Source: a virus
Length of the DNA: 18,367 nucleotides
Direction: 5' to 3' (one strand)
Virus genome (UHGV): UHGV-1667981
Within the stretch, counting starts at the first letter, position 1. Every line of letters begins with the position of its first letter. This document shows positions 8,747 through 13,583 of the stretch, in pieces. The notes under the pieces were generated by a model that was not told the DNA's origin, did not search any database, and saw only the letters and a list, made by a program, of their open reading frames with translations. A program made the translations under genes and the position numbers.

Positions 8747-9343
8747 ATGAAAACACGAGGCGAACGACTGAAAGCACGCCGTTTAGAGATGAAGCTGACG
8801 TTGCGAGAAGTTGCTGAGGCTGTCGATATCTCTATAGCAGGCGTCCAAAACTTAGAACGTGGCGACGTAATGCCGTCACTGGAGATAGGTATTGCCCTGG
8901 CTAAGTGCTTACGCAAGCCAGTGCATTGGGTGCTATATGGGACAGAATATGACCCTGATCGCATTCCTGTTATTGGCACAACTGAAAGTGGGCCAGATGA
9001 AGAGTGGAAGCCGGGACAGGTTCCAAATACTGAGCGATTCCTGCCATTCATCAGCCAGCGCAATACTGTGTATGCGTTAACTATCAGCAATCTTACGCAG
9101 GGAAACTATCAGCCAGGCGATTTTCTCCTGGTCGATTCTGCGCTGGAACTGGTCCCCGGCGAGGATGTTCTGGTTCGTGATACTGCAGGAAATATCACTA
9201 TCCAGCGCCTGGCCCGTTTTGATGATGAAAATTACTATCTGGATGGAACAAACTCACAACGCGCCATCTTCAGGAAAAGCGATCTTGAATTTGTTCACCA
9301 AATAGTCGGAACGATCAAATCATTCATGGTTGAGGGTAGATGA
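8747..9343 (+). CDS. CI/CB-like prophage repressor: N-terminal XRE-type HTH plus C-terminal LexA/S24-like domain
   Basis: ORF 8747..9343(+), 198 aa. HTH region LTLREVAEAVDISIAGVQNLERG; C-terminal PGDFLLVD...GEDVLVRD resembles the S24 fold. No obvious Ser in a G-x-S-M context, so autocleavage may be absent. Confidence 0.85.
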   Translation: MKTRGERLKARRLEMKLTLREVAEAVDISIAGVQNLERGDVMPSLEIGIALAKCLRKPVHWVLYGTEYDPDRIPVIGTTESGPDEEWKPGQVPNTERFLPFISQRNTVYALTISNLTQGNYQPGDFLLVDSALELVPGEDVLVRDTAGNITIQRLARFDDENYYLDGTNSQRAIFRKSDLEFVHQIVGTIKSFMVEGR

Positions 9344-9442
9344 CTTAATACGGGGTTTATTGTTTGCTGTAAATCTGGTTTAATGCAGGGCATATGTTCT
9401 GTGGGTTGACTCAGGTTACAGCAGCAGAAAAAAGACGAAAAA

Positions 9443-9471
9443 AACCCGAGTCGGCAAACTCGGGTCCTTTT
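9443..9471 (+). terminator. Intrinsic terminator downstream of the repressor gene (8-bp stem ACCCGAGT/ACTCGGGT, 6-nt loop, T-tract)
   Basis: acccgagt-cggcaa-actcgggt then ccTTTTc; preceded by an A-tract, so it could act bidirectionally. Confidence 0.6.
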
Positions 9472-9587
9472 CAGGAAGCAGCCACAACAAAGCGACGGAT
9501 TCCGTCAATCAAAGATGCGTTTATTGTGGCTGCTCCTGCGGATTTTTTCAACCCGAAAAAACATAATTCGCATGGAATGGCTAAAAA

Positions 9588-12500
9588 ATGACATTAAACG
9601 ATTTCTATGCGGATCGCTTTGGCAGCGATCCGTTCTCGCTAATTGAAGCAGCACGGGATGAACTAACCGAGCTGGCACAGATGGCTGGTATCAACTGGCC
9701 TGCCTGTTCCGACAACATCCAACTCAACCCTCGCGGGGGTGTTGAGCGTTACTCTTCATACAATAAAACATCTCCAGAAGCTCTCGAGAAGAGCCTCAAA
9801 GGACGCGTAGAAATTTACTCCCGGCTGGAACACAGCAAAGGGATTGATTATCCGTTCATTAACTTCGTCCATAAAGGCAGCGATGCTGGCTCATGGAGCG
9901 GTTTCTCCTTCCTGTTTTCTGAATATCGCCGTGAGCAACAGCGGAATAATGCGACCGTGGTCGCACAACCGGAAGAAGAACGGGCAAGAATAGAACGTCA
10001 GGCCGAAGCACGTCGTCGCCGTGAAGAACAAAAACGAATTAATGACCTGAAAAACAACCAAATGGACCATGAACGTTTGCTGGGATGGCTGGCATTTCAC
10101 AGCGCGTGGGAACATGCTCCTGCAGAAGACGGCTCGTGGCCATATGCGATTAAAAAAGGTATTCGTGACGTTTTTAATTCGTGTGATGTGCGTCGCGTGA
10201 CCAGTCACGACAGCGCAAAATGGAGCAGGGGGCCAACCACGTATATGGCTATCCCTCTGGCTCACCTGGACGGTCGTTACGATGGTCGTATTGTGGGTTG
10301 GCAGCGAATCGACAAACAAGGTGGAAAATACCAGACCAGCGCCGTAACCAGCGGCGATTTCGTCGGTGCCTGCTTTGTTATCGGTGAGCTAAAAGGGGCG
10401 CAAAACATCGCTGTTACAGAAGGTTTTGCTACTGGTGCATCCATCTGGCTTGCCACGAAAAAAGATAAACGCTTTGACGCTGTGGTTGTCGCTGTATCCG
10501 CTAACAACATGGTTCATGTTGTGGAACAACTGGTAAACATGTACCCGGCGGCAAAAATCACCTGCGCACTGGATAATGACAGGAAATCAGCTACAGAAGG
10601 AAAAGGGAATACCGGCCTGCGGACTGGCTATGAAATCTTATCGAAATTCAACGATGTCCGCTGCGTCTATCCAACTTTTGAAGACGATCCGCAAATGGAG
10701 TGCAGTGACTTCAACGACCTGCACAAACTACGTGGACTTCGTGAAACAGCACGTCAACTGTTTGCAACTGCAAACCGCCTGAAAACTGGCACTGATTTGC
10801 TATCTCTGACGCTCAACCGCCTGAAGACAATTAAGCGGGATAACCGTCGTACTTTTGCCAAAGAGCTGCTGAGAGCGGTGGATATTGGCATGCTAACCTG
10901 CCCGGTTCCTAACAGTCCGTCAGATTTATTTAACATGTTCTGCATCGTTCTGCGTGAAATGGGACTGGAAAATATCTATCGCGCTACGGTAAAAGACCAC
11001 ATTGCCCGTCGCCTGAATAAAAAGTGCCGTATTGCCCAGGCTCCGCGCTCTTTCAGCGAACGCATAACTGATCCCAATAAACGCCCTCAACATATCACCT
11101 ATAAGCGTTTTGAAACTTCGGTAATGACCGATGATGTCCTGAAGTACGTGCAATCACTACAGGGGATAGTCATCGTCCGTGCTGGTATGGGTTCCGGCAA
11201 ATCTACTGGATTGTTACGACCGTTAATGCATAGCTCAGAACGTGGTATCTCTGTTGCTCACCGTGTCTCCCTTATTGGTGGCCTGTGGGAAATGATGACA
11301 GAAGGAAAAGGTGTAAAAGCCGATATCCTGCACTATCAGGACCCTGGCTATCAGGAAATGGCTCCATACGCCAGTAAACTGACCATCTGCATAAACTCGA
11401 TTGTTAAAAACTGCTGGCAACCGTTGATGCGCCAGCACGACTATTTTGGCTTTGACGAGGCCACGCAAGGGCTACGTGCCGTTCTTTCCGGTCGGGCTAT
11501 GGAAAACCCGGTTGCTGTATTCAATACGCTAATTGACGCGCTGGCCAGAACGGAACAACACCCAATCATGGTGGATGCTGATGCGAACGATCTACTGGTT
11601 GACCTGGCTGAACTGGCTATGAAACGCCGTGAAGAACTAGGTTTACCGGCATGGCTGCAGATCCACGTAATTGAATTACCTGTTGATGTTTGCAACCGCG
11701 AAACAGGTGAGCCAATCCGGGTTTTTTATACAGAAAAAGATCGCATCATGACCGAGGTGGTGAAAGCTGTATCGGATGGCGAAAAAATCATGTTGGCCAC
11801 CGACAGCTCCACCTTTGCAGAAGATGTGACAGCCACCCTGAGAATGCATTTTCCTGGTAAGAAATTTCTGTGTGTAAACCAGAAAAACAAACCAGAGCCA
11901 GAAGTTGAAGCATTTACCAATCAACCGAAAAAGATGGTCAAAAAATACGACGGCCTGATTTATAGCCCGTCTATTTCATCCGGCGTGTCGATTGAGCAAA
12001 AACATTTTGACCGTCATTTCGGCATGTTCTGTGGTGAAGTTGTACCCAGCGACGCAGTGCAAATGCTACGCCGCGACCGTACAGCAAAAGAATTTATTAT
12101 CGGCTTTGATAAAGCTCGTGCAAAACGTGAAACTGACCCGCAAAAAATAGAACGAGCATTCGCCCAGGCATTGCTTGCTACCGCAGGTATGAACGGTGAA
12201 CTTACGGATGTCGTTTTCGATGGCGACCGTATATCAATGGGGGTGGCCAATACCGACTTTACCAGGATGAAAATTAAAGCAGCCGCAATTGAAGCGACTG
12301 CGCGTAACGACTACGCCAGCAACATGATCTGCATCATGCACAGCGACGGTTATAAGGTATCACCGCTGGCCACCGATTATGCTGCGAATGATATCGGTAA
12401 AGATCTGCGTAAAGAAGCGCGGGATATTGTGTGGGAACAGACACTGGATCTGCACCTCAATACAGAAACTCCACAAGAATCAGAGCGTGAAGAACTGCTA

Positions 12501-13583
12501 AAAAAACGCGCGCTGACGCTTGAAGAACAGGCAAAACTTGTCCGCTGGGATATTGAAAACGAACTGAAACTACCGGTTGAAGAAGGCACGCTGAAATTCT
12601 ATTTCGATGGTGCTCGAGACAAAGTTCGCCGCTATGAAACAATGCTTTTAGATGAGGTAACAGCTCGTCGTTACGACCGGGAAGAAGCAGCCATCAATTT
12701 TACCTACGCATACCGTCAGGCGGGACAGTGGCAATATTTTGTAGTGACCGCGATGACTCGCGAGCAGGCTGATGATGTCTTTAAAACTAAATTCCCTGGA
12801 ATAATCGATCACAAGGTAAAAGCTACTCCTACTGTTGAAGTCGGGGCGCGCGGTTTCTATGCGCTTAAATCAGCAACTCTCCGGCAGTACTTTATCGACT
12901 GCGGTATCAACCCTGAAACTATGACCGGCGAGGCGACTCAGGAGCGTCTCAAATTCGCTCGAGATAACCTCATGACAGCCGAACGCCGTGACCTGTTGAA
13001 TAACGTTCTGCACATTGGTGGTTTTATGACGCCAAAAGGGAAGCCTAAAGTGCCGGAAGCGTTGTTTAAAAACATTTGCGACTCTCTTGGCCTTAAAACA
13101 GGTAAACGTCGCGGCAGAGACGGCGATAAGCGTCCAACCTTGCGTTTTGTTGAGCCCGAATCAGCGGCATTTATGCTGGATATTCTTGTTCAGCGTCAGA
13201 AAGATGGCCTAACCCTAAAAACGCGTAAAGCCGAGAAGACAGCCATCGAAATGGATCGCGATTTGGATCTCAATATATATATGGATGATAAAACGCGATC
13301 CACAAACGAGCAGGTTCAAAACGCCCCTCATTCAGTAATTTCTGAGGCTTTGGCCGTATTGCCGGTGGCTGTTCCTGAGTCCTGGGCGATGAGTGCGCTT
13401 TCCGGTGAGGAGCTGGCCACTATGTCATCATGGTCATCAACCAGCATAGCTATGACGTTTGCATCTCTGTACCTCACAGAGTTCATGGATCACTTGTCCA
13501 GCAATGAACTGCGGCGGTTACGAGAATACATTACCGGGAATAGCTCATGCAGCTACGAAGAGCAGGGCGCTTTCTATGGGTAA
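9588..13583 (+). CDS. repA: Multifunctional replication protein, primase-helicase (N15 RepA-type, 1331 aa)
   Basis: ORF 9588..13583(+). TOPRIM-like primase signature (AVTEGFATGASIW ... CALDNDRKS) in the N-terminal third; Walker A RAGMGSGKSTG and Walker B-like FGFDEATQG in the middle. Size and architecture match N15 RepA (about 1300 aa) as recalled. Confidence 0.9.
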   Translation: MTLNDFYADRFGSDPFSLIEAARDELTELAQMAGINWPACSDNIQLNPRGGVERYSSYNKTSPEALEKSLKGRVEIYSRLEHSKGIDYPFINFVHKGSDAGSWSGFSFLFSEYRREQQRNNATVVAQPEEERARIERQAEARRRREEQKRINDLKNNQMDHERLLGWLAFHSAWEHAPAEDGSWPYAIKKGIRDVFNSCDVRRVTSHDSAKWSRGPTTYMAIPLAHLDGRYDGRIVGWQRIDKQGGKYQTSAVTSGDFVGACFVIGELKGAQNIAVTEGFATGASIWLATKKDKRFDAVVVAVSANNMVHVVEQLVNMYPAAKITCALDNDRKSATEGKGNTGLRTGYEILSKFNDVRCVYPTFEDDPQMECSDFNDLHKLRGLRETARQLFATANRLKTGTDLLSLTLNRLKTIKRDNRRTFAKELLRAVDIGMLTCPVPNSPSDLFNMFCIVLREMGLENIYRATVKDHIARRLNKKCRIAQAPRSFSERITDPNKRPQHITYKRFETSVMTDDVLKYVQSLQGIVIVRAGMGSGKSTGLLRPLMHSSERGISVAHRVSLIGGLWEMMTEGKGVKADILHYQDPGYQEMAPYASKLTICINSIVKNCWQPLMRQHDYFGFDEATQGLRAVLSGRAMENPVAVFNTLIDALARTEQHPIMVDADANDLLVDLAELAMKRREELGLPAWLQIHVIELPVDVCNRETGEPIRVFYTEKDRIMTEVVKAVSDGEKIMLATDSSTFAEDVTATLRMHFPGKKFLCVNQKNKPEPEVEAFTNQPKKMVKKYDGLIYSPSISSGVSIEQKHFDRHFGMFCGEVVPSDAVQMLRRDRTAKEFIIGFDKARAKRETDPQKIERAFAQALLATAGMNGELTDVVFDGDRISMGVANTDFTRMKIKAAAIEATARNDYASNMICIMHSDGYKVSPLATDYAANDIGKDLRKEARDIVWEQTLDLHLNTETPQESEREELLKKRALTLEEQAKLVRWDIENELKLPVEEGTLKFYFDGARDKVRRYETMLLDEVTARRYDREEAAINFTYAYRQAGQWQYFVVTAMTREQADDVFKTKFPGIIDHKVKATPTVEVGARGFYALKSATLRQYFIDCGINPETMTGEATQERLKFARDNLMTAERRDLLNNVLHIGGFMTPKGKPKVPEALFKNICDSLGLKTGKRRGRDGDKRPTLRFVEPESAAFMLDILVQRQKDGLTLKTRKAEKTAIEMDRDLDLNIYMDDKTRSTNEQVQNAPHSVISEALAVLPVAVPESWAMSALSGEELATMSSWSSTSIAMTFASLYLTEFMDHLSSNELRRLREYITGNSSCSYEEQGAFYG
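9950..9965. repeat. Palindrome TGCGACC-GT-GGTCGCA (copy 3 of 3), inside repA coding sequence
   Basis: Shares the 16-bp core gcgaccgtggtcgcac (9951..9966) with the 18-mer at 3128..3145; 7-bp inverted arms here, because the flanking base is A rather than G. Encodes ATVVAQ in the repA frame, the same peptide the copy at 7507..7524 encodes in the 7481..7801 ORF. Confidence 0.5.
13252..13302. other. Candidate internal replication origin element within the 3' part of repA: 9-bp inverted repeat flanking an (AT)n tract with three GATC sites
   Basis: tggatcgcg (13252..13260) and cgcgatcca (13294..13302) flank atttggatctcaatatatatatggatgataaaa. GATC at 13254, 13266 and 13297. Confidence 0.35.

Follow-up and report, generated by a model that had tools for sequence, protein, structure and literature searches.

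Inverted repeats in the cB-repA leader of an N15-like linear phage-plasmid as candidate parts of an antisense-RNA control module

Antisense control of plasmid rep genes is well established, and the N15 immB record (U45242.1) annotates elements of this kind in the gap that separates the prophage repressor gene cB from repA, the gene for replication. The record lists PL, the putative repA promoter, overlapped by the operators OL1 and OL2 of the CB repressor; a 'putative terminator of repA leader transcript'; on the opposite strand, a 'putative terminator of RNA antisense to repA transcript'; and, in the leader, Pinc, the 'promoter of putative antisense RNA'. The CB operator motif is 16 bp long with the form TA-N10-TA, and CB binds OL1 and OL2 and affects copy number (PMC4997575). 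The homologous gap was analysed here in UHGV virus genome UHGV-1667981, an N15-like linear phage-plasmid, represented by a stretch of 18,367 nucleotides (nt) that is referred to throughout as the window. The subject of the analysis is a set of inverted repeats at 9472-9587, in the leader of repA. These repeats are read as the working parts of an antisense-RNA copy-number control module, in which a countertranscript from Pinc would switch the repA leader between two helices; the model as a whole is given a probability of about 0.6. Beside the known antisense control of rep genes, it offers a plausible, unproven mechanistic refinement and a predicted module that appears to be conserved and uncatalogued. 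No paper on antisense control of N15 repA was found in the accessible literature on N15 and phage-plasmid antisense control, and an Rfam search (E <= 10) returned no family at its gathering threshold, the best match (Leu_leader, 27.6 bits against 50) being driven by the terminator.

The cB-repA leader and a predicted countertranscript

The window region is, with near certainty, the positional ortholog of the N15 cB-repA leader, or inc region. The order of cB repressor, bidirectional terminator, leader and primase-helicase gene repA is the same as in N15, as judged from the open reading frames (ORFs), the Pfam matches and the N15 feature table. The cB-repA gap measures 244 nt and contains every element listed in an earlier, preliminary description of the leader. 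RepA of N15 and RepA of the window are 83.5% identical over the first 300 amino acids, and in relatives the gene is annotated as 'plasmid replication protein, CyRepA1 family'. Escherichia phages YDC107_1 and PhiR46_1 share 98-99% identity with the 401 nt that surround the repeats, and for N15, phiKO2 and further linear 'telomere' phage-plasmids the figure is about 82%. The leader matches 214 plasmid records, 176 of which are from Klebsiella. The region is present in 18 of 5426 complete Escherichia coli genomes, plasmid-borne every time, where the sole annotation beneath the match is the repA coding sequence (CDS) and no non-coding RNA is annotated. A scan of the genome contigs for the locus returned a single locus.

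The feature that organises this leader, overlooked in the preliminary description, is a minus-strand promoter and terminator suited to the production of a countertranscript. The N15 Pinc hexamers (TTGAAA at 1750-1755 and CACAAT at 1727-1732, with a 17-nt spacer) recur unchanged at 9551->9523 of the window, and they are invariant in alignment A1, which holds 28 distinct sequences collected by BLAST or via RepA and not via the leader. This promoter and terminator, which correspond to N15 Pinc and its putative antisense RNA, point to a module of antisense-RNA control and away from a leader that works by itself. The terminator upstream (9437-9472), earlier assigned to the repressor gene, is present, and its better version is on the minus strand. 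It would be expected to end cB and leader transcripts weakly on the plus strand and the countertranscript strongly on the minus strand. The putative PL, with 8 of 12 consensus matches, drew no call from the promoter scan.

The predicted countertranscript was delimited by a start inferred about 7 nt downstream of the Pinc -10 and by an end at the T-run. Its predicted fold has an energy of -34.3 kcal/mol (z = -4.4), and covariance model R1 scores 75 bits on the minus strand at 9437-9516. Exact-pattern scans enlarged the set of sequences to 117 copies, with 51 distinct sequences and 32 distinct bodies; the extra copies had been selected on the invariant segment and were therefore used for the variable part only. 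The predicted folds of the variants share a layout, given for 24/32 of them in one tally and for all in another: a single-stranded stretch of about 10-13 nt at the 5' end, then a single hairpin (H1), then the hairpin of the terminator. On the minus strand H1 has a mean of -11.0 kcal/mol and 11.8 pairs, 4.1 of them G.U. Its mirror on the plus strand has a mean of -4.4 kcal/mol with 0.3 G.U pairs and is weaker because each G.U turns into an A.C mismatch. This asymmetry suggests that the fold is strand-specific, as expected of a minus-strand RNA. In silico, the molecule fits the class of 50-150-nt RNAs with their own promoter and intrinsic terminator that lie antisense to a rep leader and combine a stem-loop with an accessible single-stranded region. 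A functional countertranscript that represses repA is considered likely.

Inverted repeats and two predicted exclusive folds of the leader

The preliminary description had reported nested inverted repeats between the terminator and repA. The elements are all present inside 9472-9587, with their individual coordinates shifted by 2-3 nt. The outer repeat consists of GCAGCCACAA at 9478-9487 and its complement TTGTGGCTGC at 9524-9533, a motif found twice in the window, where 0.04 matches are expected; two were obtained in none of 200 shuffles. A repeat finder extends this repeat to arms at 9477-9491 and 9520-9534 (15 nt, 93% complementary, one mismatch), and as RNA it forms about 20 predicted pairs between 9472-9495 and 9517-9538 (-29.7 kcal/mol), an energy equalled by none of 1000 shuffles. 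The T6/A6 inverted pair (T6 at 9543-9548, A6 at 9556-9561) appears in folds as a hairpin of 5-7 bp around CAACC (U9545-A9559 ... C9549-G9555). Although the elements exist, they are not simply nested, as the right arm is common to two mutually exclusive helices.

For the description of these helices the leader is divided into segments A (left arm), B (variable apical region) and C (right arm), followed by the T6/A6 hairpin and the repA translation initiation region (TIR), which contains the Shine-Dalgarno sequence (SD) and the start codon (Table 1). On the mRNA strand, A is predicted to pair with C and not with a local partner. This long-range helix, A:C, is predicted in 32/32 variants with a mean of 21 pairs, and folding z-scores, that of the countertranscript included, range from -4.4 to -5.1. 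Base changes and 1-7 gap positions in each of 30 distinct variants leave A with 19-22 Watson-Crick matches to the invariant C. The target of the antisense tail lies in the apical loop of A:C.

The second helix, C:TIR, joins the right arm to the initiation region. In this predicted OFF fold, UCCUGCGGAUU (9534-9544) pairs with AAUUCGCAUGGA (9565-9576), GGCUG (9528-9532) with UGGCU (9578-9582), and CGUUUAUUGU (9518-9527) with codons 2-4 (9591-9600). The duplex has a predicted energy of -18.9 kcal/mol (z = -2.9), which 21 of 2000 shuffles reach. Antisense pairing was simulated by masking the nucleotides complementary to the countertranscript. On masking, the predicted ensemble gives up A:C for C:TIR, whose pairs then have probabilities of 0.96-1.0 as compared to 0-0.47 in the free leader. 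The predicted cost of opening the SD-AUG region of the window is 3.9 kcal/mol in the free leader, 11.5 kcal/mol with the antisense target masked and 5.6 kcal/mol with both the target and C masked. Masking A alone gives 11.2 kcal/mol, and masking B alone leaves the cost unchanged at 3.9 kcal/mol. When the target is masked and C is shuffled, the cost is 6.5 +/- 1.4 kcal/mol, and 2 of 300 shuffles reach 11.5. Averaged over the 32 variants, masking raises the predicted cost from 5.3 to 9.6 kcal/mol, and it does so in each of them (32/32).

The suggestion, made in the preliminary description, of a structured 5' leader that regulates replication-protein expression is supported by these models: the outer stem is found in 32/32 variants and is rebuilt in distant relatives, and its right arm can, as predicted, occlude the repA ribosome-binding site (RBS). 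The outer repeat would be the helix of the ON state. The right arm would do triple duty, as the Pinc -10 and spacer, as the partner of the activator arm and as an anti-SD, and the T6/A6 pair would form the apex of the OFF hairpin and the frame of the Pinc -35. Such a design, in which one 22-nt segment has three roles, would be notable for its compactness.

In the helix-switch model, repA would be transcribed from the CB-repressed PL through a leaky bidirectional terminator. In the ON state, the SD-like AGGAAG of A would pair with the CUCCU of C, the RBS would be fairly open and RepA would be translated. Pinc, inside the leader, would fire constitutively on the minus strand, back toward the terminator, to give a product of about 80 nt whose concentration would track copy number. 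Pairing of the two RNAs would probably nucleate between the antisense 5' tail and the apical loop at 9507-9516, as in pMV158 RNAII (PMC4485353). In the OFF state the countertranscript would take A, and the freed C would wrap round the T6/A6 hairpin in the forward direction and pair with AAUUCGCAUGGAAUGGCU and the first codons. With the SD and start region buried, RepA synthesis and replication initiation would fall as copy number, and with it the antisense dose, rises. Judged on the predicted folds, this specific exchange of helices has about even odds of being the mechanism.

Table 1. Coordinates of genes, signals and predicted RNA segments in the cB-repA region of the window
Feature	Position	Strand	Description
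cB prophage repressor gene	8747..9343	+	198-aa ORF; Pfam HTH_3 and weak Peptidase_S24; homologous to N15 cB
Putative repA promoter PL	-35 TTTATT 9356-9361; -10 TTTAAT 9379-9384	+	Assigned by position against U45242.1 and alignment A1
CB operators	OL2 9357-9372; OL1 9380-9395		Overlap PL; both 16-mers keep TA-N10-TA
Bidirectional rho-independent terminator	9437..9472	both	Inverted repeat; minus-strand call of 17 pairs then T7; nearly invariant in A1
Predicted countertranscript ('inc' RNA)	9516->9437, ~80 nt	-	5' single-stranded tail, hairpin H1, terminator hairpin
Segment A, left arm	9472..9495	+	SD-like AGGA(A)G at 5' end; proposed anti-anti-SD; contains GCAGCCACAA
Segment B, variable apical region	9494..9516	+	Palindrome 9494-9506 and complement of antisense 5' tail 9507-9516
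Segment C, right arm	9517..9542	+	Proposed anti-SD; contains CUCCU and TTGTGGCTGC; common to helices A:C and C:TIR
Proposed anti-SD UCCUGCGG	9534-9541	+	Within segment C
Pinc -10 CACAAT	9523..9528	-	Inside segment C; promoter scan; N15 'Pinc minus_10_signal' has same hexamer and position
Pinc -35 TTGAAA	9546..9551	-	Promoter scan; matches N15 annotation; 17-nt spacer
T6/A6 hairpin	9543..9561	+	Predicted apex of OFF-state hairpin; loop carries Pinc -35 on other strand
repA TIR	9565..9600	+	SD GGAAUGG 9574-9580; AUG 9588-9590
repA replication gene	9588..13583	+	1331-aa ORF; Toprim_3 and Herpes_ori_bp matches

The perfect palindrome GACGGATTCCGTC, which the preliminary description placed within the outer repeat, is found at 9494-9506 as 6+6 nt around a central T, owing to which the literal string matches the plus strand alone. 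It is the least important of the elements described there and sits in the variable apical region. The palindrome is confined to the E. coli clade (36 of 118 loci); 82 of the 118 loci have no copy of it, and neither do N15 and phiKO2. In one clade member (L017) a G->A change breaks it on the plus strand and leaves a G.U pair on the minus strand. On the minus strand, 9493-9507 was also called by the scan as a weak terminator-like site, with 6 pairs followed by CTTTGTTGTG. If used, this site would shorten the countertranscript to about 25 nt; it is probably incidental. A pseudoknot between the palindrome loop (AUUCC) and the SD (GGAAU), proposed by eye, is not conserved outside the clade and was rejected. 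The weak repA SD pointed out earlier is a property of the window clade, with GGAATGG as compared to GGAAAGG in N15 and other relatives.

Several other features lie in or next to the leader. A 9-mer, (G/C)GTTTA(T/A)TG, occurs three times. Two copies, at 9354-9362 and 9377-9385, lie at the left halves of OL2 and OL1; the remaining one, at 9518-9526, overlies the Pinc -10 where segment C begins. This last copy is without an operator right half and so is probably no CB site; a half-site over Pinc is nevertheless a curious observation. Within repA codons 8-15, a perfect 9-bp hairpin with a 5-nt loop (CGGATCGCT/AGCGATCCG, 9610-9632) appears in every leader fold, and its N15 counterpart has a single mismatch (GAG for GAT). 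The phiKO2 record (L032 957-974) places a 'putative plasmid partitioning site' in the 5' portion of repA, for which the window equivalent is about 9950-9970.

Conservation, distant relatives and alternative readings

In alignment A1, the terminator and the stretch from 9517 to the AUG are nearly invariant, and the approximately 45 nt between them, which make up the countertranscript body, are rich in substitutions and indels. Segment B is the most divergent intergenic stretch. Between clades, the stretch from C to the AUG is 93-100% identical, as compared to 42-55% at the fourfold-degenerate sites of repA and 62-82% in the A+B body. Within C, 9519-9538 shows no variation among the 28 sequences, and 9517, 9518 and 9539 vary in one or two rows; 9543-9560 is invariant and 9561 varies. 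The 17-nt Pinc spacer (9529-9545) has one variable position among the 28 sequences, and this near-invariance fits the switch model because a promoter alone would leave its spacer free. Over 9517-9590, 4 of 51 OFF-helix positions vary as compared to 7 of 23 unpaired positions (p = 0.029), and at one of the four variable OFF-helix sites the change, C->U, leaves a G.U pair in place. The same distribution of change is seen between N15 (L002 1675-1720) and an IMG/VR contig (L021): identity is 96-100% over cB, operators, terminator and the stretch from C to the AUG, and 68% in the body of about 50 nt. This looks like local turnover or replacement, or like diversifying selection, of a recognition segment. 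If the model is correct, fast turnover of the recognition segment A+B could create incompatibility types among Klebsiella and E. coli phage-plasmids.

Some loci of the N15-like group call for separate mention. In the Klebsiella-type variants with an A5 run (KpLi5, L031 580; 48ST307, L033 580), a conserved ATG in GCATGGAA is in frame with repA, and the depositors set the repA start 15 nt upstream. This ATG is out of frame in the A6 variants, including the window and N15, so the downstream ATG is likely the common start. Several IMG/VR contigs carry two copies of the locus (L015/L016, L050, L063/L067, L041/L072, L044/L075, L074/L082 and L127/L128), mostly in opposite orientation and on the same strand in L050; they are probably dimer assemblies or replication intermediates of hairpin-ended linear plasmids. 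In the record of Klebsiella phage Kpn_R1 (L119, PQ800144.1, 'UNVERIFIED'), A+B are joined at about 660-710 straight to about codon 8 of repA. This record, without segment C, Pinc, SD and start codon, reflects an assembly error or a defective replicon and is uninformative as an intermediate relative.

The layout of the leader recurs in relatives whose sequence has diverged beyond alignment. The distant set comprised PY54, vB_YenS-P840, a Salmonella arizonae plasmid, an Orbaceae plasmid and six distinct PY54-like IMG/VR contigs (seven loci); Pantoea and Rouxiella relatives appear in the counts and stand outside the compared set. RepA of PY54, P840 and the Salmonella and Orbaceae plasmids is 45-50% identical to that of the window, and their leaders are without nucleotide similarity to it; RepA of the further PY54-like contigs is 61-76% identical to PY54 RepA. 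For the distant set as a whole, RepA identities to the window or among the members are also given as 45-62%. A bidirectional terminator is present in all distant relatives, together with an inverted repeat equivalent to A:C that has 11-15 pairs and a loop of 10-20 nt (9, 5 and 1 of 1000 shuffles reach it). A minus-strand -10 (TACAAT, TAAAAT or TATAAT) lies inside the right arm. The scan calls the promoter in the Salmonella (TGCACA-17-TAAAAT) and Orbaceae (TTGCAA-17-TATAAT) plasmids; the TACAAT of PY54 was read by eye, and the scan made no call there. The predicted countertranscript is about 70 nt long and again consists of tail, hairpin and terminator. Across lineages the changes in the arms are compensatory (AUUGUG/CACAA, AUUGUA/UACAA, AUUUUA/UAAAA).

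The four distant leaders that were folded, those of PY54, P840 and the Salmonella and Orbaceae plasmids, all show a C-dependent rise in predicted RBS opening cost on masking. For the free leader, the masked target and the masked target plus C, respectively, the values are 7.4, 11.0 and 5.1 kcal/mol in PY54, 4.4, 15.2 and 4.4 kcal/mol in the Salmonella plasmid and 7.2, 11.4 and 6.4 kcal/mol in the Orbaceae plasmid. In every lineage other than Orbaceae, the PY54-like contigs included, the stretch immediately 3' of the core arm shows complementarity to two places, an SD-like copy farther upstream and the real SD region. The sequences involved differ: GUUUCCGC is complementary to CGGAGAUG and GCGGAAAU, CUUCCGC to CGGAAGUG and GCGGAA, and GUUUCGCC to GGGCGAAAC (GGCGAAAC) twice, the upstream copy in this last case being identical to the SD region. 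As read from the sequences, this dual complementarity is the classical anti-anti-SD/anti-SD/SD arrangement. It is tempting to regard the cB-repA leaders of all CyRepA1-type telomere phage-plasmids (N15-, PY54-, Salmonella- and Orbaceae-like) as one uncatalogued RNA module, an SD/anti-SD/anti-anti-SD switch flipped by a countertranscript with its promoter in the anti-SD arm, but this generalization is tentative and its odds are put somewhat below even.

A plus-strand terminator-like hairpin with a U-run was also seen just upstream of the repA SD in PY54 (L120 665-690) and in the Salmonella arizonae plasmid (L122 660-691). Its loop, GCAAC, reads by eye as the TTG of the countertranscript -35 on the other strand (the scan calls TGCACA, in Salmonella only). 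The hairpin could be a real attenuator or a by-product of promoter and UP element.

A number of observations weigh against the helix-switch model or limit its support. C and the TIR are invariant in the N15-like clade and so yield no covariation there for either helix. Non-Watson-Crick positions in A:C are without strand bias (14 G.U, 10 A.C and 21 other), and the complementarity of C to the TIR is, by the shuffle comparison given above, only moderately unusual. The accessibility figures are equilibrium thermodynamic predictions obtained with crude masking. Pinc matches the consensus at 9 of 12 positions with a modest -10, and the N15 annotation of the antisense RNA is itself 'putative'. On re-alignment with model R1 (33 distinct copies), 79% of H1 cells are paired, and the H1 pair counts are no better than those of shuffles, for which reason formal covariation of H1 is not claimed; the changes in H1 are mostly one-sided (C-G<->U-G). 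The minus-strand G.U bias and the rebuilding of the layout across lineages lend the structure informal support. RNAalifold, applied to a MAFFT alignment of 31 countertranscripts, recovered the terminator alone, because indels misalign H1. In the distant set, several of the per-lineage anti-SD duplexes are not significant, the Orbaceae anti-SD pairing is weak and the PY54 SD is predicted to be partly buried even without the antisense RNA. Finally, N15 and phiKO2 are reported to be incompatible with each other, and PY54 to be compatible with both (PMC4488713). The antisense bodies of N15 and phiKO2 are 73% identical, and incompatibility despite this 27% difference suggests that the variable segment may not determine incompatibility; sop and CB could do so.

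Among the alternatives, the one that survives best keeps the countertranscript and changes its mode of action. Repression of repA could occur by RNase III cleavage of the 80-bp duplex followed by message decay, or by convergent interference between PL and Pinc, in which case A:C would limit the time window for antisense binding or act as an RNase III or stability element. Sense and antisense RNA are fully complementary over about 80 nt, the two promoters are convergent, an A:C helix of about 20 bp is long enough to be an RNase III substrate, and the moderate significance of C:TIR favours a mechanism without refolding. What such a mechanism leaves unexplained is that the Pinc spacer and AAUUCGCAUGGA are invariant and mutually complementary, and that in distant lineages the C-distal segment is complementary to the SD-like copy as well as to the real SD. 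On balance it is judged unlikely, at somewhat better than one chance in five.

It is improbable, at less than one chance in ten, that A:C followed by U6 (9543-9548) is a plus-strand attenuator of the pT181/pIP501 type that limits read-through into repA, with or without the antisense RNA. The strong GC-rich helix does end at 9538 and U6 begins at 9543, and the PY54 and Salmonella lineages have the terminator-like hairpins described above. The stem and the U-run are nevertheless separated by four nt (CGGA), the U-run is also an arm of the T6/A6 hairpin and adjoins the Pinc -35, and the scan found no plus-strand terminator within 9473-9587. In addition, antisense pairing with A would destroy A:C, so the countertranscript would be an activator, in conflict with the N15 'inc' designation.

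The preliminary description had offered a protein-binding site as its second possibility. Inverted repeats that act as DNA sites for CB, RepA or a host factor, and so regulate transcription from Pinc or of repA, are very improbable, with odds near one in twenty. The right arm overlaps the Pinc -10 and begins with GTTTATTG, an 8-mer that is the same as the left half of OL2, and the palindrome has perfect 6-bp arms. That palindrome is, however, specific to the E. coli clade, and the gaps and G.U-type changes of the left arm are tolerable in an RNA helix and not in a symmetric operator. The arms also misfit the CB operator: TTATTGTGGCTGCTCC (9521-9536) is without the 3' TA of the TA-N10-TA motif, and CB binding in phiKO2 was mapped solely to the OL1/OL2-bearing part of the cB-repA region (PMC4997575). 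Chance is hardly credible as the origin of the repeats. Inverted repeats of small size do arise often, and chance probably accounts for several of the 12 on the list; for the repeats described here it is effectively refuted by the extreme conservation relative to synonymous sites, alongside the shuffle results (0/200 and 0/1000), the folding z-scores and the recurrence of the layout.

Two further candidates were rejected. A leader peptide or translational coupling was considered because of a 65-aa ORF at 9394-9591, with an ATGA overlap with the repA start. This ORF occurs in the window only, the 31 other variants having none or unrelated frames, and it is unique because the terminator A-run is 1 nt shorter (A7 as compared to A8) than in relatives of 98% identity; that it is a gene is next to excluded. 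For a second repA promoter, downstream of the terminator and ahead of the AUG, the scan gave no plus-strand candidate. CATAAT at 9562-9567, considered as a -10, has no usable -35, and the stretch varies between clades. Overall, no conserved leader peptide was found among the 32 variants, no attenuator in the scan of 9473-9587 and no operator by the CB motif in the arms.

Comparison with known control systems

Linear phage-plasmids of the N15 type are common in Klebsiella and also occur in E. coli. The helix-switch model would explain control of copy number in the prophage state on top of CB repression and would allow the coexistence of such elements to be approached from their sequences. The model would also mark the nucleotides that linear cloning vectors based on N15 must keep or could tune.

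The closest described relative is the N15 inc region itself, which has the same synteny, Pinc hexamers and hexamer spacing as the window and is identical to it in the right arm and TIR; its bidirectional terminator is homologous, and the overall identity is 82%. As far as the record (U45242.1) goes, its 'putative' annotation describes no helix-exchange mechanism. The difference lies in the countertranscript body (A+B), which is only 68% identical to that of the window, and in the 13-nt palindrome and the weaker SD (GGAAUGG) that the window clade has for its own.

The proposed logic resembles transcriptional attenuation in pT181 and pIP501, where the antisense RNA captures segment 1, so that segment 2 pairs with segment 3 and the output helix is an intrinsic terminator. 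The same three-segment logic would apply in the window, except that the output helix would bury the SD and AUG, with no terminator formed. Plasmid R1, with CopB and CopA/CopT-tap, likewise combines a repressor with a countertranscript whose target lies about 80 nt upstream of repA (PMC5717011). R1 control acts by coupling to the tap leader peptide, whereas the window is without a conserved leader ORF. In the IncB, IncI-alpha and IncK plasmids, the antisense RNAI also binds far upstream of the rep RBS and neutralises an upstream activator RNA element, and a few changes in the antisense RNA are enough to alter compatibility in this I-complex (PMC10724649). These plasmids rely on a loop-to-distal pseudoknot and on translation of the repY leader peptide, as compared to the simple helix exchange, again with no conserved leader ORF, predicted here.

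Control of repB in pMV158 by CopG and RNAII has the same combination of a transcriptional repressor (CopG in pMV158, CB here) and a short countertranscript (PMC4485353; PMC5717011). The layout is the same as well: RNAII is encoded in the interval from the repressor gene to rep, combines a terminator hairpin with a single-stranded 5' tail and inhibits translation of rep. Its binding starts at the 5' tail and not at a kissing loop (PMC4485353). RNAII differs in its length of 48 nt and in having its target immediately upstream of the repB initiation signals. The target in the window ends 72 nt upstream of the AUG, so that, unlike in pMV158, repression of translation by the countertranscript would need an indirect refolding step.

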